This document shows, in pieces, positions 1 through 40,175 of a stretch of DNA of 40,175 bases; within the stretch, counting starts at the first letter, position 1, and each line of letters starts with the position of its first letter. The stretch lies in sequence record PQ227709; one strand, 5' to 3'. The stretch comes from Escherichia phage 536_P3. The position numbers were made by a program, and so were the translations under genes. Under the pieces are notes generated by a model. The model had not been told where the DNA came from. It saw only the letters and a program-made list of their open reading frames with translations, and searched no databases.

Positions 1-251
1 TCTCATAGTGTAAGAACCTCAAGTACCCCCCATAGCCCTCTTAAAGCCACCTAAAGTCAGCCCTACCCCTAGGGTTTAACCTTCGGTTAACCTTGAGTGT
101 AGCGATAGCTCACTACGGTATCTCTCCAAGTGGTCTATAGGATAGCCTAAAGTGTTGCCTAAAGTCAATACCTAAAGTGGTGGATGGCTTAAGGAGAGGC
201 TTAAAGAGTGTCCTAGTGTACCAGTTCGATAGTACATCTCTATGTGTCCCT
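1..251. repeat. Left direct terminal repeat (DTR); identical copy at 39925..40175
   Basis: First 251 nt (tctcatagtgtaagaacctc...tctatgtgtccct) recur at the window end by direct comparison; typical of T7-like terminally redundant genomes. Confidence 0.9.
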
Positions 252-273
252 ATCTGTTAGCCTCATAAAGTAA

Positions 274-338
274 ACCCTAAAGACATCACCTAAAGCCACT
301 ACCTAAAGACCAGACCTAAAGCCATCACCTAAAGAGTG
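274..338. repeat. Array of five ~13-bp units with CCTAAAG core, just inside the left DTR
   Basis: cctaaagacatca/cctaaagccacta/cctaaagaccaga/cctaaagccatca/cctaaagagtgcc read directly; T7-like genomes carry CCTAAAG short repeats flanking the terminal repeats. Confidence 0.8.
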
Positions 339-412
339 CCGCTATCTTAAAGACAACCAGACCGATAGACCCATTGTTAACCTGTAGTGATGCCTTGTAG
401 TTATCTGTAGTC

Positions 413-436
413 AATTCAATTACCCTCACTAAAGGG
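413..436 (+). promoter_or_regulatory. T3-type phage RNAP promoter (phiOL position)
   Basis: aattcaattaccctcactaaagggaat, variant of the T3 consensus AATTAACCCTCACTAAAGGGAGA. Confidence 0.7.
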
Positions 437-492
437 AATAAGGGATACTTAAAGAGGGAATAAGGGATTTAATAAAAGATTTAAATTAATGG

Positions 493-522
493 TTGACTTT
501 AAGTAACCCTTAAGGCTATTAT
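493..522 (+). promoter_or_regulatory. Host sigma70 early promoter A1
   Basis: TTGACT, 18-nt spacer, TATTAT; flanking sequence parallels my recollection of the T7 A1 region. Confidence 0.65.
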
Positions 523-621
523 TCATCTCGTCAACGGGACAACGGCCTTAAAGCCACTCCCTGAGATACCGGAGTCAACCGGATAAGTAGACAGCCTGAT
601 AAGTCATACGAAAAACAGGCA

Positions 622-651
622 TTGACAACATGAAGTAACATGCAGTAAGAT
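622..651 (+). promoter_or_regulatory. Host sigma70 early promoter A2
   Basis: TTGACA, 18 nt, TAAGAT; near-identical to recalled T7 A2 (ttgacaacatgaagtaacatgcagtaagatac). Confidence 0.75.
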
Positions 652-746
652 ACACAACGCTAGGTAACACTAGCAACGTCAACCGGACACAAGGTGTCTT
701 CTAGGTGACTTAAGCGCACCACGGCATATAAAGCGAAACAAAATGG

Positions 747-775
747 TTGACAACATGAAGTAAACACGGTACGAT
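747..775 (+). promoter_or_regulatory. Host sigma70 early promoter A3
   Basis: TTGACA, 17 nt, TACGAT; matches recalled T7 A3 (ggttgacaacatgaagtaaacacggtacgatgtaccac). Confidence 0.75.
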
Positions 776-826
776 GTACCACGAAATGACGGAACAGTGA
801 GGCGGGACACTGAAAGCCGCTAGGGT

Positions 827-1080
827 CTAACGAAACCAGACCGACACGCTCTTTAACAATCTGGATAATAGCTCTTGAGTGTACCGATGTATAAGCGAAT
901 AACTCAAGGTCGCACTGAAAGCGTGGCCTTTATGATATTCACTTAACACGAACCTAACGAAACCAGACCGACACGCTCTTTAACAATCTGGATAATAGCT
1001 CTTGAGTGTACCGATGTATAAGCGAATAACTCAAGGTCGCACTGAAAGCGTGGCCTTTATGATATTCACTTAACACGAAC
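827..1080 (+). repeat. Perfect tandem duplication, 2 x 127 bp, each unit carrying a boxA-like CGCTCTTTAACAA and the R0.3 RNase III hairpin
   Basis: Unit ctaacgaaaccagaccgacacgctctttaacaatctgg...ctttatgatattcacttaacacgaac at 827..953 repeats at 954..1080 with no mismatch seen. Confidence 0.9.
1027..1070 (+). promoter_or_regulatory. RNase III processing site R0.3 (second copy at 900..943)
   Basis: aactcaaggtcgcactgaaagcgtggcctttatgatattcact, hallmark T7-group RNase III hairpin. Confidence 0.75.
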
Positions 1081-1099
1081 TAACATGAGGTAACACCAA

Positions 1100-1558
1100 A
1101 TGATTTTCACTAAAGAGCCTGCTAACGTCTTCTATGTACTGGTGTCAGCTTTCCGTTCAAACCTTGATGATGAGGTTAACATGAGTCGCCACCGCCACAT
1201 GGTTAGCACTTTACGTGCCGCACCGGGTATTTATGGCTCCGTTGAGTCAACCGATTTGACCGGGTGCTATCGTGAGGCAATCGCAAGCGCACCGACTGAG
1301 GAAAAAACGGTTCGTGTACGCTGCAAGGACAAGGCGCAGGCACTCAATGTTGCACGCTTAGCTTGCAATGAGTGGGAGCAAGATTGCGTACTGGTATACA
1401 AATCACAGACTCACACGGCTGGTCTGGTGTACGCTAAAGGTATCGACGGGTATAAGGCTGAACGTCTGCCGGGTAGCTTCCAAGAGGTTCCTAAAGGCGC
1501 ACCGCTGCAAGGCTGCTTTACGATTGACGAGTTCGGTCGCCGCTGGCAGGTGGCCTAA
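1100..1558 (+). CDS. 0.3: S-adenosyl-L-methionine hydrolase/lyase (SAMase), anti-restriction gene 0.3 of the T3 type
   Basis: 152-aa ORF, ATG with GAGG RBS; sequence MIFTKEPANVFYVLVSAF...FGRRWQV matches my recollection of T3 SAMase; first gene after the early promoters. Confidence 0.9.
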   Translation: MIFTKEPANVFYVLVSAFRSNLDDEVNMSRHRHMVSTLRAAPGIYGSVESTDLTGCYREAIASAPTEEKTVRVRCKDKAQALNVARLACNEWEQDCVLVYKSQTHTAGLVYAKGIDGYKAERLPGSFQEVPKGAPLQGCFTIDEFGRRWQVA

Positions 1559-1559
1559 C

Positions 1560-1715
1560 ATGAATCGTTATTACATCAACGTACCGGGCTGGGGTGGGTC
1601 TCTAACCTGCTACGGATACAACGAACGGGACGCACGGAAACGTTTTAGAGAACAACACGGCTTCGGAAGGCTTCCTAATGGGACGCGCCTATGGCTGGAC
1701 GCCCGTGATTGGTAA
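1560..1715 (+). CDS. Hypothetical 51-aa early protein (gene 0.4/0.45 position)
   Basis: ATG at 1560 overlaps the 0.3 stop (TAACATG); the track ORF 1368..1715 is an upstream extension in a frame overlapping 0.3. Confidence 0.55.
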   Translation: MNRYYINVPGWGGSLTCYGYNERDARKRFREQHGFGRLPNGTRLWLDARDW

Positions 1716-1719
1716 GTGA

Positions 1720-1765
1720 TAGACTCAAGGTCGCACTGTATGTGTGGCCTTTATGATTATCACTT
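1720..1765 (+). promoter_or_regulatory. RNase III processing site
   Basis: agactcaaggtcgcactgtatgtgtggcctttatgattatcact. Confidence 0.7.
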
Positions 1766-1779
1766 ATAGGACTAACACC

Positions 1780-1980
1780 ATGAGTAAACTTCTGGCAACA
1801 TCTAAAATAGAAGGCCAATGCACCGTAACACTGCGTGAGTATTACCACGGGTCAATGGGAAGCACCTATGTTGTGCGATACGGTAAACAGGTAACACATT
1901 GGGTAAACCCGATTTTAGCACAAGAGGATTATCAAGCCTGTGTGATACACCAAGCAACATGTGCGGGCTGGAATGATTGA
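1780..1980 (+). CDS. Hypothetical early protein (gene 0.6 position)
   Basis: Track ORF 1744..1980 begins at GTG inside the RNase III hairpin; first in-frame ATG at 1780 (MSKLLATSKIEG...). Confidence 0.5.
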   Translation: MSKLLATSKIEGQCTVTLREYYHGSMGSTYVVRYGKQVTHWVNPILAQEDYQACVIHQATCAGWND

Positions 1981-1999
1981 CATTATGGGAGGATTAGCA

Positions 2000-2158
2000 A
2001 TGGTTATCTTTATCGCTGTCGCACTCTTTGCGGTCGCTGGCTGGTACTCTGAGTCACGCAAGGCCGCTCGCTATCATCGCAAGATGGTTAAACTCATGGA
2101 ACACTTGGACGCAGAAGGGCGAGGCCGCGAGGCTATCGAACTGGTGAAACACGCATGA
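2000..2158 (+). CDS. Small hydrophobic protein (gene 0.65 position), probable membrane protein
   Basis: Track ORF 1961..2158 starts at GTG; ATG at 2000 follows GGGAGGA RBS; MVIFIAVALFAVAGWY is a hydrophobic helix. Confidence 0.5.
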   Translation: MVIFIAVALFAVAGWYSESRKAARYHRKMVKLMEHLDAEGRGREAIELVKHA

Positions 2159-2523
2159 TGATTCTCTTTATCGCACTGGTCTATCTGTGCATCGCAATGT
2201 AATTTATGCGAGACTTTAAGCGCGGTCTGGCAATACACAAGGCAACGCTGAGTTACTTTAAGTGGGGATTCATCCCACGGTTTACGGTTCGTGAACGCAA
2301 CGGACGCTTTAAGGCCAACAAGGTAGGAGTATTTTACATTGCTACGCACTAACTCAAAGCACGTAAAGACCGCACTGTATGCGATGGCGTATGGTGCATC
2401 GAAACGCAAGGTCAAACGCATCTTAACGAGACACCGCAAGATGACCGCACGACAGGCTGCAAGCGCTGTCAAATGGGCTGAATTTACTCTTTACTCTTCT
2501 TACAGATAACAGGACACTGAACG

Positions 2524-3633
2524 ATGACTTTCACCGAAGCACAAGCCACACTCGAAGCTATCCGCAACCTGCCGATTGACCGATTGGACGAACGCCAGCC
2601 CATGCTGGTGGCTCTTGCGGCTGCTATCGTGAACGCTGAGACTCAAGACGGCGAACTGACGCAGGCCAAGGGCAATTGGGGTCTGGAGTCTATGGACTAC
2701 TGGCAGACACTGGCTGAGCGTATGCGTGATGTTGGATTTGTACGCTTGGGTAACGGTCACTTTAGCGCAGCATATGAGCACGCATTGTTACCGGGCAAGG
2801 TTATCAAGGTAGGCTTTAAGAAAGAGGATTCAGGCGCTGCCTATGCTGCATTCTGCCGTATGAATCAGGGTCGTGAGGGTATCCCTACGGTGTACGACAT
2901 TCAGCGTCATACAGGCTGCTACACGGTGGTACTGGACTACCTGACGCCGCTTAACGATTGGTGCCACGGTGAAAGCGATAAGATTCGCCACCACTTCCAC
3001 GCTGCAAGGGAAATCATTGAGGAGGATTGCTTCGACACCGCCGAAGAGTACCCGATAAGCGAGGGCTTCATTGAGACCTGCAAGGATATTCGCAAGTTCT
3101 TCTTAGGCATCGCATCGTTCGATTGTCACAGCGGGAACATGATGAAAGACCAGATGGGACGCTTGATTATCACCGACCCGGTGTCATTCAGCGCAGACGA
3201 CAAGTTGAAGCCGGGTGAATTTCACTGTGACCCGGATGAACTAATCGCCGAGATTGAGGCGCTGAGGGCGCAGGAGGCTATCGAGCGCTGCAAGGCACGT
3301 AAGGCTAGGCGTGACCCTAAAGGAACCTTTCAGGTAGCGCGTAAAGCACGCATCAAGTGGCGCAGAAAGGCCGCTAAGCGCGTAAAGCACAACGCTAAGG
3401 TACTCGCTAGGATGCGCATGGACGCCAATCAGAATCGCAGGGATGAGCCTAGGGCGCGTATGGTGTGGGGTGATAAGCACTGGCGCAACGCTTGGATGCA
3501 CCACAATAACCTAAACTTTGCAGAACTGGAGCGCCGCGCTGCTGCGGCAATGATGATGCACGACGAGGTGCGCATTCAGTGGGGCAAACCGTTACACATA
3601 GACGCATACCTTGACAGGAGACTGCAAGGCTGA
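2524..3633 (+). CDS. 0.7: Serine/threonine protein kinase and host transcription shutoff protein
   Basis: 369-aa ORF between the 0.3 region and the RNAP gene; size and position match T7/T3 gp0.7. Confidence 0.85.
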   Translation: MTFTEAQATLEAIRNLPIDRLDERQPMLVALAAAIVNAETQDGELTQAKGNWGLESMDYWQTLAERMRDVGFVRLGNGHFSAAYEHALLPGKVIKVGFKKEDSGAAYAAFCRMNQGREGIPTVYDIQRHTGCYTVVLDYLTPLNDWCHGESDKIRHHFHAAREIIEEDCFDTAEEYPISEGFIETCKDIRKFFLGIASFDCHSGNMMKDQMGRLIITDPVSFSADDKLKPGEFHCDPDELIAEIEALRAQEAIERCKARKARRDPKGTFQVARKARIKWRRKAAKRVKHNAKVLARMRMDANQNRRDEPRARMVWGDKHWRNAWMHHNNLNFAELERRAAAAMMMHDEVRIQWGKPLHIDAYLDRRLQG

Positions 3634-3703
3634 TAGAGTCTTTTCTTACAGGTCATCATGAGGTGGCCTGAATAGGAACGATTTATTCACAATGAGGTAA
3701 GCA

Positions 3704-6358
3704 ATGAACATCATCGAAACTATCGAAAAGAATGACTTCTCCGAAATCGAACTGGCTGCTATCCCGTTCAACACACTGGCAGACCACTACGGCAGCGCAT
3801 TGGCTCGTGAACAACTAGCTTTAGAACATGAGTCTTATGAGCTAGGCGAGCGCCGCTTCCTCAAGATGCTTGAGCGTCAAGCGAAAGCTGGTGAGATTGC
3901 AGACAACGCAGCCGCTAAGCCGTTACTCGCTACACTTCTCCCTAAGTTAACCACACGTATCGTCGAGTGGCTCGAAGAGTACGCATCGAAGAAAGGCCGC
4001 AAGCCCGTAGCCTATGCACCGCTCCAGTTACTCAAGCCGGAAGCCTCCGCGTTTATCACCCTGAAAGTTATCCTTGCGTCACTGACCAGCACGAACATGA
4101 CAACCATTCAGGCCGCTGCTGGTATGCTGGGGAAGGCCATTGAGGATGAGGCACGTTTCGGTCGCATCCGTGACCTCGAAGCGAAGCACTTCAAGAAGCA
4201 CGTTGAGGAACAACTCAACAAACGCCACGGGCAAGTCTACAAGAAAGCCTTTATGCAGGTGGTCGAGGCCGATATGATTGGTCGAGGACTGCTTGGTGGC
4301 GAGGCGTGGTCTAGCTGGGATAAAGAAACCACGATGCACGTAGGGATTCGCCTGATTGAAATGCTGATTGAATCCACGGGTCTGGTGGAATTACAGCGCC
4401 ACAACGCAGGTAACGCAGGCTCTGACCATGAGGCACTGCAACTGGCCCAAGAGTACGTGGACGTATTAGCGAAGCGTGCAGGCGCTCTAGCGGGTATCTC
4501 TCCGATGTTCCAGCCGTGTGTCGTACCGCCGAAACCTTGGGTAGCAATCACCGGGGGCGGCTATTGGGCTAACGGTCGCAGACCTTTGGCACTAGTTCGC
4601 ACTCACTCTAAGAAGGGCTTGATGCGCTACGAAGACGTTTACATGCCAGAAGTCTACAAGGCTGTGAACATCGCGCAAAACACCGCATGGAAAATCAACA
4701 AGAAAGTTCTTGCGGTTGTCAATGAGATTGTGAACTGGAAGAACTGCCCGGTCGCAGACATTCCATCTCTGGAGCGCCAAGAGTTACCGCCTAAGCCGGA
4801 CGACATTGACACCAACGAGGCAGCACTCAAGGAGTGGAAGAAAGCCGCTGCTGGTATCTATCGCTTGGACAAGGCACGAGTGTCTCGCCGTATCAGCTTA
4901 GAGTTCATGCTGGAGCAGGCCAACAAGTTTGCAAACAAGAAAGCAATCTGGTTCCCTTACAACATGGACTGGCGCGGTCGCGTGTACGCTGTGCCGATGT
5001 TCAACCCGCAAGGCAACGACATGACGAAAGGCCTGCTGACCCTCGCTAAAGGAAAGCCAATCGGTGAGGAAGGTTTCTACTGGCTGAAAATCCACGGTGC
5101 GAACTGTGCAGGTGTCGATAAGGTTCCTTTCCCTGAGCGCATCGCGTTCATTGAGAAGCACGTAGACGACATTCTGGCTTGCGCTAAAGACCCAATCAAT
5201 AACACTTGGTGGGCCGAGCAGGATTCACCTTTCTGTTTCCTAGCGTTCTGCTTCGAGTATGCAGGCGTTGCGCACCACGGTCTGAGCTACAACTGCTCTC
5301 TGCCGCTGGCGTTCGACGGGTCTTGCTCTGGTATCCAGCACTTCTCCGCGATGCTCCGCGATGAGGTAGGTGGTCGTGCGGTTAACCTGCTGCCAAGCGA
5401 AACCGTGCAGGACATTTACGGCATCGTTGCGCAGAAAGTAAACGAGATTCTCAAACAGGATGCAATCAACGGCACGCCTAACGAGATGATTACCGTGACC
5501 GACAAGGACACCGGGGAAATCTCTGAGAAGCTCAAGCTGGGAACCTCAACGCTGGCGCAACAGTGGCTGGCATACGGTGTAACCCGTAGCGTAACTAAAC
5601 GTTCGGTCATGACGCTGGCTTACGGTTCCAAGGAGTTCGGCTTTCGTCAACAGGTATTGGACGACACCATTCAACCTGCGATTGACAGCGGTAAGGGCTT
5701 GATGTTCACCCAACCTAACCAAGCGGCTGGTTATATGGCTAAGCTGATTTGGGACGCGGTGAGCGTGACCGTAGTCGCAGCGGTTGAGGCGATGAACTGG
5801 CTCAAGTCTGCCGCGAAGCTGCTGGCTGCTGAGGTCAAGGACAAGAAGACCAAGGAGATTCTGCGCCACCGTTGCGCGGTTCACTGGACTACGCCGGACG
5901 GCTTCCCGGTCTGGCAGGAATACCGTAAGCCACTCCAGAAGCGTCTCGATATGATTTTCTTAGGGCAATTCCGTCTGCAACCGACGATTAATACCCTCAA
6001 GGATTCAGGCATTGACGCACACAAGCAGGAGTCTGGCATCGCGCCTAACTTTGTTCACTCACAGGATGGTAGCCACCTCCGCATGACAGTCGTTTATGCT
6101 CACGAGAAGTATGGCATTGAGTCCTTTGCGCTCATCCATGACAGCTTTGGGACTATCCCGGTAGACGCTGGTAAGCTCTTTAAGGCTGTGCGTGAAACGA
6201 TGGTTATCACCTATGAGAACAACGATGTGCTGGCAGACTTCTATGACCAGTTTGCAGACCAGCTACACGAGACCCAACTGGACAAGATGCCTCCGCTTCC
6301 GAAGAAAGGAAACCTGAACCTGCAAGACATTCTCAAGTCTGACTTTGCCTTTGCATAA
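3704..6358 (+). CDS. 1: Single-subunit DNA-dependent RNA polymerase (T3 type)
   Basis: 884 aa; MNIIE(T)IEKNDFSEIELAAIPFNTLADHYG...DFAFA matches recalled T3 RNAP; all phage promoters here are of T3 specificity. Confidence 0.97.
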   Translation: MNIIETIEKNDFSEIELAAIPFNTLADHYGSALAREQLALEHESYELGERRFLKMLERQAKAGEIADNAAAKPLLATLLPKLTTRIVEWLEEYASKKGRKPVAYAPLQLLKPEASAFITLKVILASLTSTNMTTIQAAAGMLGKAIEDEARFGRIRDLEAKHFKKHVEEQLNKRHGQVYKKAFMQVVEADMIGRGLLGGEAWSSWDKETTMHVGIRLIEMLIESTGLVELQRHNAGNAGSDHEALQLAQEYVDVLAKRAGALAGISPMFQPCVVPPKPWVAITGGGYWANGRRPLALVRTHSKKGLMRYEDVYMPEVYKAVNIAQNTAWKINKKVLAVVNEIVNWKNCPVADIPSLERQELPPKPDDIDTNEAALKEWKKAAAGIYRLDKARVSRRISLEFMLEQANKFANKKAIWFPYNMDWRGRVYAVPMFNPQGNDMTKGLLTLAKGKPIGEEGFYWLKIHGANCAGVDKVPFPERIAFIEKHVDDILACAKDPINNTWWAEQDSPFCFLAFCFEYAGVAHHGLSYNCSLPLAFDGSCSGIQHFSAMLRDEVGGRAVNLLPSETVQDIYGIVAQKVNEILKQDAINGTPNEMITVTDKDTGEISEKLKLGTSTLAQQWLAYGVTRSVTKRSVMTLAYGSKEFGFRQQVLDDTIQPAIDSGKGLMFTQPNQAAGYMAKLIWDAVSVTVVAAVEAMNWLKSAAKLLAAEVKDKKTKEILRHRCAVHWTTPDGFPVWQEYRKPLQKRLDMIFLGQFRLQPTINTLKDSGIDAHKQESGIAPNFVHSQDGSHLRMTVVYAHEKYGIESFALIHDSFGTIPVDAGKLFKAVRETMVITYENNDVLADFYDQFADQLHETQLDKMPPLPKKGNLNLQDILKSDFAFA

Positions 6359-6740: not shown

Positions 6741-6776
6741 CTCAAGGTCATCAAAGCGGGTGGCCTTTGTGATTAA
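6741..6776 (+). promoter_or_regulatory. RNase III processing site R1.1
   Basis: ctcaaggtcatcaaagcgggtggcctttgtgattaa. Confidence 0.7.
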
Positions 6777-6809
6777 CTTTCAATACACATCAACATGAGG
6801 TAAGATACT

Positions 6810-14566: not shown

Positions 14567-14610
14567 TCAAGGTCGCCCAAGGGTGGCCTTTATGATTATC
14601 ATTTAGCACG
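14567..14610 (+). promoter_or_regulatory. RNase III processing site upstream of gene 5
   Basis: taaactcaaggtcgcccaagggtggcctttatgattatcattta. Confidence 0.7.
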
Positions 14611-14628
14611 AAACCAAAGGAGGGCATT

Positions 14629-33300: not shown

Positions 33301-34299
33301 CTCCTAAACGGAACATCAAACTACATTCTTGATGCTGCCCGTCAGGGTGTTCTTGGGGATGTGGCTGGAGCGGCCCTTGCTGGGAAAGCCTCTAAGTTCG
33401 GTAAGGCAAACTACCTTAAGTCTGCCTCTATCAGCCCTGAGCAGTGGAATGGAATCAAGCAGTTGTTCAGAGACTATGCGACTCGTGGAGAAGACGGTAA
33501 GTTCACCATTCGTGACAAACAGGCTTTCGCTAACGACCCTCGGTCAATGGACTTGTGGCGGCTGGCTGACAAGGTGGCAGATGAGACTATACTGCGCCCT
33601 CACAAGGTTTCCTCACAGGACTCCAAAGCGTTCGGTGCAGGGGTGAAGATGGTGATGCAGTTTAAGAACTTCGTCATCAAGTCCCTTAACTCCCGGTTCG
33701 TCCGTAGCTTCTACGAGGCAACGAAGAACAACCGTGCGTTAGACCAAGCGTTGACTCATATCATCTCTTTGGGTCTAGCTGGTGGTTACTACGTTGCGCA
33801 GGCGCACCTTAAGGCCGCAAGCCTACAGGAGCACAAACGTAAGGAGTACCTTAAGAACGCCCTTGACCCTAAGATGATTGCTCATGCATCAATCTCTCGT
33901 AGTTCACACTTAGGCTCGCCATTGAGTATCTACGACATGTTCGCTGGGATGGTTGGTAGCGATACCTATAAGTACACCCGCTCTACGGTACTCCCTAAAG
34001 AGTCCGAGAAGCGTGACCCCAACAAGGCGGTGACAGGTAGACAGGTGGCTTCAACTATCGCGGGTGCAGTTGGTGAGCAGGTTCCGGGTTTAGGTTTTGT
34101 TGGCTCTGTAGGTGCAACAGCTATTAACGCCGCTTCCCTACTGTCTTCTCCAAACAAGGCTACCGCTCTGGAGTTCCGTACAGGACTCTTCAATACCTCT
34201 CGTGAGTTAATTCCTAATGACCCGCTCTCGCAGCAACTCATTATGAAAATCTACGAGGCTAACGGTATTCGCATCAAGGAGACGCCGAAGAAACAATAA
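30337..34299 (+). CDS. 16: Internal virion protein D with N-terminal lytic transglycosylase domain
   Basis: 1320 aa; N-terminal ...GPKGLMQFTKGTATALGL...AALAYNQGEG is an SLT-like motif as in T7 gp16. Confidence 0.92.
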   Translation: MSYDKNKPSEFDGLFQKAADNHGVSYDLLRKLAFNESSFNPKAKSPTGPKGLMQFTKGTATALGLKVTDADDDDRYNPELAVDAAARHLSDLIRKYDGDELKAALAYNQGEGRNGAPQIQAYDKGDWASISEEGRNYMRNLMDVANSPRKGDLEAFGGITPKAKGIPSGDAFAGIGKKQTVGTDLPESTGFKVEGKEQQAPNVPYAKDFWEKTGTTLDEFNSRSTFFGIGDATSAELHNSVLGVAFRAARSDDGFDLFKDTITPTRWNSHTWTPEELERIRKEVKNPSYINVVTGGSPENLDALIKMANDNYEMDARSADAGVGAKLTAGIVGAGVDPLSYVPLVGVAGKGLKVANKAFIVGTQSAGLAVASEGIRTSIAGGEAHYADAALGGLMFGAGMSAISDAIAAGIRRSRGTEVVNDFAPMAHRLEARETALNTGGEDLTRMPSENRVFDREHAGVEYSPLETEPGAIVLPQGQILSDTNPLNPQTLSEFEAVNPERAARGISLGGFTEIGLKTLRSENPTVRAIASDLVRSPTGMESGTSGKFGATASDIKERLHANNQRTYNQLYDAVRAAMKDPEFSTGGATMSRKEIRQEIYKRAALAIERPELQANLTKGERNVMNILKQHFDLKREIMENPSIFGNTKAVSIFPGSRHKGTYVPNVYDRAIKIEMVNRYGNDGLQRAIAESWLTSYRARPEVKARVDEYLMELNGLKSVQEVTPEMVQKHAMDKAYGISHTDQFSASSVIEDNIEGLVGIENNNFLEARNMFDSDMAVTLPDGNTFSVNDLRTYDMAEILPAYDRRVDGDVAIMGGSGKTTKDLKDEIMALDKQSEGNGTLKGEVEALKDTVKILTGRARRNPEGAWGTALRSVNDLTFFAKNAYMGAQNVTEIAGMLAKGNVSAITHGIPMINDWVNRGKPLRASEIKELHGMVFGKELDQLIRPGREDHVRRLRESTDTSAAVANVVGTIRFGTQELAARSPWTMLLNGTSNYILDAARQGVLGDVAGAALAGKASKFGKANYLKSASISPEQWNGIKQLFRDYATRGEDGKFTIRDKQAFANDPRSMDLWRLADKVADETILRPHKVSSQDSKAFGAGVKMVMQFKNFVIKSLNSRFVRSFYEATKNNRALDQALTHIISLGLAGGYYVAQAHLKAASLQEHKRKEYLKNALDPKMIAHASISRSSHLGSPLSIYDMFAGMVGSDTYKYTRSTVLPKESEKRDPNKAVTGRQVASTIAGAVGEQVPGLGFVGSVGATAINAASLLSSPNKATALEFRTGLFNTSRELIPNDPLSQQLIMKIYEANGIRIKETPKKQ

Positions 34300-34319
34300 A
34301 CCCTCACTAAAGGGAGAGA
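34296..34319 (+). promoter_or_regulatory. T3-type phage promoter (phi17)
   Basis: ataaaccctcactaaagggagaga. Confidence 0.75.
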
Positions 34320-34372
34320 GGTCACATTCTGGCCTCTTCTCTCTCTTAATGCTAATTTACAAAGGAGGTCAC

Positions 34373-36058
34373 ATGGCTACAACTATTAAGACCGTGATGA
34401 CTTACCCGCTGGATGGCTCCACTACGGACTTCAATATTCCGTTTGAGTATCTGGCGCGTAAGTTCGTCAGAGTGACCCTTATCGGTGTTGACCGAAAGGA
34501 ACTCATCTTGAATCAAGACTATCGTTTTGCAACTAAGACCACAATCTCCACAACGAGAGCATTGGGGCCAGCGGACGGTTATAACCTTATCGAGATTCGT
34601 CGGTATACCTCAGCTACTGAACGTCTGGTTGACTTTACGGATGGCTCAATCCTCCGTGCGTATGACCTGAACATCTCGCAGGTGCAGACCCTCCACGTTG
34701 CTGAGGAAGCTCGTGACCTTACCGCTGATACGATTGGCGTTAACAACGATGGCGACTTGGATGCTCGTGGTCGTCGTATCGTGAACGTTGCGGACGCTAA
34801 AGACCCCGGTGATGCAATAACTTTAGGCCAAGTCCAGAAGTGGAACGAATCCGCGCTGAACTCTGCGAACCGCGCACGGGCTGAGGCCGACCGTGCAACT
34901 GCGCGTGCTTCCGAGGCTGCTACCTCTGCGGGTAACTCTGCTAGTTCTGCAAGCCTGTCCCGTGATTGGGCTATCAAGGAATCGCCGGTGGAAGGAACCT
35001 TTAAGTCTTCCCGGTCGTATGCCCTTGACTCTATGGAGTACCGGGATGCGTCCAAGAGTTCTGCTGATGCTAGTGCTGCAAGTGCTGGTGCCGCTAAGAC
35101 CTCTGAGATTAACACGAAGAACTCAGAAATCGCCGCTAAGACCTCTGAGACCAACGCGAAGACCTCTGAGACCAACGCTAAGGCTTCCGAGGAACGAGCC
35201 ATTGAGGAAGCAAATAAGCTGGAGAACATGAACGATTTGGCTGGTGCAATCAAAGAGGTTCTCAAGCCAGAAGGTGCTACTTCGGGCAAGGTTGTGTGGA
35301 AATATGATATTGATAGTAAAGTCCTCCGCGCCTACAACGGTATGTCGATTGGTTGGGATTGGGACGGTACTGGTAGTCCATTCATGAATTTCTATCGTGG
35401 GAAGGACGCACCTCAAGGAACCCTTAGCGTTGACGTAGGAGAACTCAGACTGTCAAACATCGGAAGACTACGAGTACAAGCCCCACTAAACGTAGCGGGC
35501 GACTACACGCAGGACGCTGGTAGCGTATGGATTAACTCAGGAGGCTGGATTCATATGTCAAACCGAGTCCCCTCTGGTGGTAACGGTAATCGAACTCAGG
35601 GCATCTTCCTGATGAACGGAATGGGAAACAATGGTCAGCGCTCCGAGTATTTCTTGGAGGACAACGGTCAGCGTATGGCGCAACAACTCGTAGTCACCAA
35701 TGGCACTAACCAAGCGTGGTACACATTCGAGGAACACGGACTTGTCATGAACAAGAACATGCGCATTAGCTGGGGTGGTAGAACCGCCTCGTACCAAGAG
35801 AATGGTGACATCACTGGTCAGGGCATTATCTGGAGTGGCGGCTCACTGAGTGCCCATTGCAATCGCTTTCTCACTAACATCTGGATTGGTGCTGGACGTC
35901 AGCGGCACGTAGGACAACAGACTTGGGAAGGTTGGATTGACAATGGGTGCGTCATGCGTGGTATCAAGCAGATTCGTGCTGGTGGTGACTGCTTCATTGA
36001 GGAACTGTTCTTTAATGAAATGTGGAAAGGTACAGACGTAGGCCAGTGGATTATCTAA
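34373..36058 (+). CDS. 17: Tail fiber protein
   Basis: 561 aa from ATG 34373 (AAAGGAGG RBS; track ORF starts upstream at 34349); N-terminus MATTIKTVMTYPLDGSTTDFNIPFEYLARKFVRVTLIGVDRK matches the conserved T7/T3 gp17 N-domain; C-terminal half not recognised. Confidence 0.93.
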   Translation: MATTIKTVMTYPLDGSTTDFNIPFEYLARKFVRVTLIGVDRKELILNQDYRFATKTTISTTRALGPADGYNLIEIRRYTSATERLVDFTDGSILRAYDLNISQVQTLHVAEEARDLTADTIGVNNDGDLDARGRRIVNVADAKDPGDAITLGQVQKWNESALNSANRARAEADRATARASEAATSAGNSASSASLSRDWAIKESPVEGTFKSSRSYALDSMEYRDASKSSADASAASAGAAKTSEINTKNSEIAAKTSETNAKTSETNAKASEERAIEEANKLENMNDLAGAIKEVLKPEGATSGKVVWKYDIDSKVLRAYNGMSIGWDWDGTGSPFMNFYRGKDAPQGTLSVDVGELRLSNIGRLRVQAPLNVAGDYTQDAGSVWINSGGWIHMSNRVPSGGNGNRTQGIFLMNGMGNNGQRSEYFLEDNGQRMAQQLVVTNGTNQAWYTFEEHGLVMNKNMRISWGGRTASYQENGDITGQGIIWSGGSLSAHCNRFLTNIWIGAGRQRHVGQQTWEGWIDNGCVMRGIKQIRAGGDCFIEELFFNEMWKGTDVGQWII

Positions 36059-39924: not shown

Positions 39925-40175
39925 TCTCATAGTGTAAGAACCTCAAGTACCCCCCATAGCCCTCTTAAAGCCACCTAAAGTCAGCCCTACCCCTAGGGTT
40001 TAACCTTCGGTTAACCTTGAGTGTAGCGATAGCTCACTACGGTATCTCTCCAAGTGGTCTATAGGATAGCCTAAAGTGTTGCCTAAAGTCAATACCTAAA
40101 GTGGTGGATGGCTTAAGGAGAGGCTTAAAGAGTGTCCTAGTGTACCAGTTCGATAGTACATCTCTATGTGTCCCT
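39925..40175. repeat. Right direct terminal repeat (copy of 1..251)
   Basis: Direct comparison with the first 251 nt of the window. Confidence 0.9.

Follow-up and report, generated by a model that had tools for sequence, protein, structure and literature searches.

The second copy of a 127-bp sequence that stands twice, head to tail, in the early leader of Escherichia phage 536_P3, before its first gene, is very probably an artifact of assembly and finishing, that is, an untrimmed 127-bp assembler overlap that is absent from the phage genome. Most likely the phage itself has a single leader with one boxA-type box and one R0.3 hairpin, as its relatives do, and its true genome length is 40,048 bp. 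A first-pass annotation of this DNA had interpreted the repeat as a recent duplication or a laboratory-passage rearrangement and had listed an assembly artifact just as a refuter of that interpretation. Its description of the anatomy of the region held up; its causal reading did not, and the artifact it had set aside is the best explanation. A recent duplication or passage rearrangement is unlikely given that the length of the repeat equals the SPAdes maximum k, that the record was re-opened, that the relatives have a single copy and that sibling records contain artifacts of their own.

We analyzed the whole deposited stretch of 40,175 bp (“the window”), which is a complete T3-like phage genome of the genus Teetrevirus. 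Over its first 25 kb it is 94-96% identical to Pantoea phage vB_PdeP_F2M1C (F2M1C below), Klebsiella phage Patroon, Citrobacter phage SH1, Salmonella phage phiSG-JL2, and others. The features that bear on the repeat are these:

1-251, no strand assigned: left direct terminal repeat, identical to 39925-40175
493-522, plus strand: A1, host-RNA-polymerase early promoter (sigma-70 match 10/12)
622-651, plus strand: A2, host-RNA-polymerase early promoter (sigma-70 match 10/12)
747-775, plus strand: A3, host-RNA-polymerase early promoter (sigma-70 match 10/12)
827-953, plus strand: copy 1 of the 127-bp unit, 100% identical to 954-1080
847-859, plus strand: candidate boxA-type box CGCTCTTTAACAA, copy 1 (unique core, consensus match, conserved in T3 and T7)
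892-945, plus strand: predicted R0.3 RNase III-type hairpin, copy 1 (54/54 identity to T3 R0.3; local fold)
954-1080, plus strand: copy 2 of the 127-bp unit, followed at once by the gene 0.3 Shine-Dalgarno sequence and ATG
974-986, plus strand: candidate boxA-type box CGCTCTTTAACAA, copy 2 (same basis as copy 1)
1019-1072, plus strand: predicted R0.3 RNase III-type hairpin, copy 2 (native position relative to gene 0.3)
1100-1558, plus strand: gene 0.3, S-adenosylmethionine hydrolase/lyase (SAMase), 152 aa (Pfam PF23780 S-AdoMet_lyase; annotation of relatives)
39925-40175, no strand assigned: right direct terminal repeat, identical to 1-251

As described in the first-pass annotation, positions 827-953 and 954-1080 are two abutting 127-nt units, 100% identical and arranged head to tail. 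When each base of the window was compared with the base 127 positions downstream, the run of matches started at 827 and was exactly 127 long, and there is therefore no additional in-register homology at either flank: zero extra bases match (t at 826 versus c at 953, and c at 954 versus t at 1081). The length of the repeat and its spacing are both exactly 127. The only perfect repeats of at least 40 bp in the 40,175-bp window are this tandem and the 251-bp terminal repeat, and the 127-bp repeat is not attributable to chance. The junction between 953 and 954 reads CACTTAACACGAAC followed directly by CTAACGAAACCAG. We sought microhomology at the end-points of the duplication as a signature of recombination and found none at the junction. 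Such homology is an expected, although not an absolute, criterion for a genuine duplication; illegitimate joins exist. Copy 2 runs into gene 0.3 through the same join as the single copy does in all relatives.

The repeat also doubles a 40-aa open reading frame on the minus strand that lies antisense to the box and the hairpin (827-949 and 954-1076). Its homologue is called a “hypothetical protein” in relatives (e.g., UNA05036.1 and UNA05177.1), and it is probably a spurious gene call.

The first-pass annotation had assigned a boxA-like element and an R0.3 hairpin to each unit, and both assignments were borne out. A perfect boxA core, GCTCTTTAACA, is found on the plus strand at 848-858 and 975-985, downstream of A1-A3. 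In both units it fits the gamma-proteobacterial boxA consensus, GYTCTTTAANA, on the transcribed strand (PMC5725501). Even when one mismatch is tolerated, the 12-nt core GCTCTTTAACAA has no further sites in the genome, where chance alone would give 0.10. The box CGCTCTTTAACAATCTGG is common to the window unit and the leaders of T3 and T7. We found no open-access literature on boxA in the leaders of T7-group phages (T3, T7, or phiYeO3-12). These matches support the box of the unit as a candidate boxA-type, that is, NusB/NusE-binding, element.

The 54-nt hairpin segment corresponds to T3 positions 822-875, annotated as “RNase III recognition site R0.3” in AJ318471, and is identical to it at all 54 positions; copy 2 of the segment ends 27 nt ahead of the ATG of gene 0.3. 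It folded into an irregular, bulged hairpin with an upper stem, a lower stem, and an internal loop, and the z-score of the fold was only -1.9, as expected for a bulged stem. Identity and fold support the hairpin as a predicted R0.3 site of the T7 group for RNase III processing. When the two-copy leader was folded as a whole, both hairpins were local and independent in the centroid structure, while in the minimum-free-energy fold the 5' arm of copy 1 paired with the 3' arm of copy 2. A scan of positions 1-4000 against Rfam at a permissive threshold gave no match to R0.3 or boxA and returned two chance-level hits only.

R0.3 has three paralogues elsewhere in the window, at 1713-1766, 6756-6800, and 14579-14623. 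The first is 83% identical to R0.3 over 54 nt and is the counterpart of the site annotated as R0.45 in phiSG-JL2; the other two have the 3' arm of R0.3 and the downstream ribosome-binding region in common. Together, the three paralogues make up a dispersed family of RNase III-type sites.

The placement of the units in the early leader, between A1-A3 and the SAMase gene, was likewise upheld by the promoter matches and by PF23780. In alignments, the three sigma-70 matches correspond to the A1-A3 promoters annotated in T3 and phiSG-JL2, and transcripts from A1-A3 would read through the repeat. In T3 (AJ318471) and T7 (NC_001604) the leader has the order A3, boxA, R0.3, gene 0.3, in single copy. 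Each unit of the window reproduces this leader, but the window has two units where T3, T7, and the other relatives have one. The arrangement is also similar to the leader of the E. coli rrn operons, in which a host-polymerase transcript has a boxA of the GYTCTTTAANA type and, downstream of it, an RNase III hairpin, although this likeness is one of layout only.

Over 30 nt, the A2 and A3 regions (609-638 and 734-763) share 80% identity at a spacing of 125 bp, and A1 is 129 bp ahead of A2. Judged from its sequence, the triple promoter has the appearance of an old tandem amplification whose period is near that of the 127-bp repeat.

A single copy of the unit was found in about 100 relatives. A 501-bp query over the region matched 257 phage records, and in the 84 records with at least 80% query coverage the matching length was approximately 366-391 bp, equivalent to one copy, with two longer exceptions. 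We considered phiSG-JL2 (EU547803.1), which matched 498 bp of the 501-bp query, as a second two-copy genome; however, alignment and a repeat search revealed an unrelated insertion of 124 bp (approximately 800-925) between CCGACA and boxA, which lengthens the early leader. The longer match of Pantoea phage F1M1C, examined as a possible duplication, is really a 36-bp insertion. It lies at approximately 737-772, just after A3, and has short GCTACCAC-like repeats.

In nine of the ten scanned whole relatives, the boxA core and R0.3 each occur exactly once. F2M1C is the tenth; its recombinant leader, likewise in single copy, contains a variant box (GTTCTTTAACAA). The leader of F2M1C between A3 and the box (670-1000) is largely different. 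The early leader is a hotspot of indels and recombination.

A 70-nt probe spanning the junction always matched in two pieces, which mapped to opposite ends of a single copy, and the 30-nt junction sequence was absent from the viral contigs of IMG/VR, the metagenome contigs of JGI, and the genome contigs of GTDB. Two independent assemblies encode an identical SAMase, and the second copy was seen in neither: ENA contig k141_36323 covers the whole leader and has one copy, and Logan contig SRR13378546 starts inside the unit and shows one copy only. We asked whether these two contigs come from the same isolate as the window and rejected this, as they are different strains with SNPs; the window's own reads are not represented.

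The length of the repeat corresponds to a setting of a common assembler. SPAdes uses odd values of k of at most 127, with defaults of 21, 33, 55, 77, 99, and 127. When the assembly of a phage genome closes into a cycle, its contig is output with its first k bases again at its end, and the resulting overlap at k = 127 has been documented as a “127 bp artefactual DTR”. In the documented artifact the overlap is at the two ends of the raw contig, whereas in the window it is internal and head to tail; an internal, head-to-tail position follows when a contig is re-opened with its overlap left in place. The window begins at the exact left terminus of T3 (TCTCATAGT) and has the 251-bp repeat at both ends, and the contig must therefore have been closed and then re-opened. 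This shows that the record was opened at a T3-type physical end and that its finishing was manual or scripted. The repeat thus has an allowed value of k as its length, its copies are identical and adjacent, it lies in a re-opened record, and it is absent from independent isolates and assemblies.

We propose the following course of events. Reads of a terminally redundant T3-like genome would have been assembled by a de Bruijn graph assembler at k = 127, whereby the terminal repeat collapsed and the graph closed to a cycle. The output would have been a 39,924-bp linear contig, in which the 39,797 unique bases are followed by a repeat of the first 127. This contig would then have been cut at the physical left end, following the T3/T7 convention, and its old end joined to its old start with the overlap untrimmed, which would leave a perfect head-to-tail 127-bp repeat where the old contig ends met, at 827-1080. 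The second copy of the 251-bp terminal repeat would have been appended last. Copy 1 (827-953) would correspond to the 3' end of the old contig or, equivalently, to the redundant copy. Joining untrimmed ends produces an exact k-base repeat at an arbitrary internal position, and no microhomology at the junction is needed. We infer the identity of the assembler and the order of the steps, and SPAdes from the number 127 alone.

Similar defects were observed in sibling records. We scanned eleven genomes, the ten whole relatives and the window, for perfect repeats. The perfect tandem duplications in this set are 77, 127, and 127 bp long, and no other length occurred; two of the ten sibling records therefore contain a perfect tandem repeat with the length of a SPAdes k. 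The closest whole-genome match to the window, F2M1C (OL744212.1), has a perfect 127-bp tandem at 34922/35049 (34922-35175). In the deposited form its tail-fiber ORF has 403 aa; with one copy deleted it has 535 aa, and the restored ORF aligns lengthwise with the tail-fiber region of the window. The annotation of F2M1C is fragmented here into a CDS at 33849-35060 and small “hypothetical proteins”. As in the window, the repeat of F2M1C is perfect, 127 bp long, and head to tail, in a phage of the same genus, and the record begins within one base of the T3-type left end.

The other common maximum k in SPAdes is 77. In Klebsiella phage mtp14 (OX335419.1), gene 1 contains a perfect 77-bp tandem at 5467/5544 (5467-5620) that breaks the RNA polymerase gene into ORFs of 580 and 335 aa; with one copy deleted the product is 884 aa, the length found in the window. 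Like the window, mtp14 is a Teetrevirus with T3 gene order and a perfect head-to-tail repeat of a SPAdes default k length; it differs in that k is 77 and that the ORF of an essential RNA polymerase is broken. Its record starts approximately 80 bp inside the terminal repeat. Neither F2M1C nor mtp14 would be viable as deposited, and both repeats are therefore artifacts. In contrast, the repeat of the window lies in a non-coding leader, so that proof of an artifact from a broken reading frame, as available for the truncated tail fiber of F2M1C and for mtp14, does not apply to it.

One alternative is a genuine and very recent tandem duplication in the phage stock, arising either naturally or during laboratory passage. 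The region is non-coding and insertions in it are tolerated in relatives: the leader changes length in nature, by +124 bp in phiSG-JL2 and +36 bp in F1M1C, and is of a different kind in F2M1C. The two hairpins form independently in the centroid fold, and nothing in the sequence makes two copies lethal. A leader that tolerates changes in length, together with the older duplication of 125-bp period in the early promoter region (A2/A3), means that a genuine duplication would be viable and not unprecedented. However, a length of exactly 127 bp would then have to be a coincidence, and of the perfect tandems in the group (77, 127, and 127 bp) two are artifacts. Recombination between short direct repeats would moreover leave some microhomology at the junction, where there is none, and the junction occurs in no relative or collection searched. 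T7-group phages recombine direct repeats efficiently, and a perfect 127-bp tandem should vanish quickly unless it is selected. We consider a genuine duplication improbable for these reasons.

It could also be speculated that a different bookkeeping error had the same outcome: a manual merger of two contigs, or of a contig with a reference-guided patch, may have counted a 127-bp overlap twice, or a circularization or polishing tool may have duplicated the seam. Like the untrimmed assembler overlap, this fits a perfect repeat that lacks a biological parallel, in a record whose ends are finished and defined. It would leave the exact value of 127 unexplained on its own, whereas the documented SPAdes k-mer overlap explains it, and we regard it as very improbable. 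The biological conclusion would be the same for both, namely one true copy. A two-copy leader that is ancestral to, or selected in, a sub-lineage has next to no probability and is refuted within the collections searched, as the copy-number comparison with T3-group relatives that the first-pass annotation had proposed gave one copy in all those examined, and the two copies of the window are without any divergence; we found nothing in its favor.

If the second copy is an artifact, as we favor, the deposited genome exceeds the true length by 127 bp and contains a spurious second regulatory module and an extra 40-aa antisense ORF, and inferences about duplicated antitermination or processing signals would be wrong. 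The 127-bp repeat is not a novel feature, and the main value of the result is one of data hygiene. The check exposed two more public Teetrevirus records with a broken essential gene, OL744212.1 (tail fiber) and OX335419.1 (RNA polymerase). Screening for perfect tandems in which length equals spacing and is 55, 77, 99, or 127 would clean up many phage records.

On the other hand, if the duplication is real, early transcripts from A1-A3 would carry two boxA boxes of the NusB/NusE type and two R0.3 hairpins. Cleavage of both hairpins by RNase III would then be expected to set free an additional, boxA-containing fragment of approximately 127 nt. The copy proximal to gene 0.3 is in the native position, and the 5' end of the 0.3 mRNA would therefore be as in single-copy phages; the effect on SAMase expression would presumably be small or nil, which suggests a modest and probably near-neutral variant. 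Such a phage would be a natural experiment on how early gene expression responds to leader processing and Nus-factor loading, and also on the survival of a perfect 127-bp repeat under T7-type recombination.

Several other repeats and length differences were observed in the window. The terminal repeat is 251 bp in the window, 231 bp in T3, and 230 bp in phiSG-JL2, and a 19-bp insertion (TGTAGCGATAGCTCACTAC) at 98-116 makes up most of this difference. Just inside the left terminal repeat, at 276-335, is an array of 4.6 copies of a 13-bp CCTAAAG-N6 repeat; the same motif is also scattered across 150-340 and is typical of the ends of T3/T7 genomes. The tail-fiber region (34373-36025) contains a repeat with a 21-bp period at 35092-35182 (approximately 4.3 copies, 74% matches, with a 42-bp super-period), which presumably encodes a 7-residue repeat.
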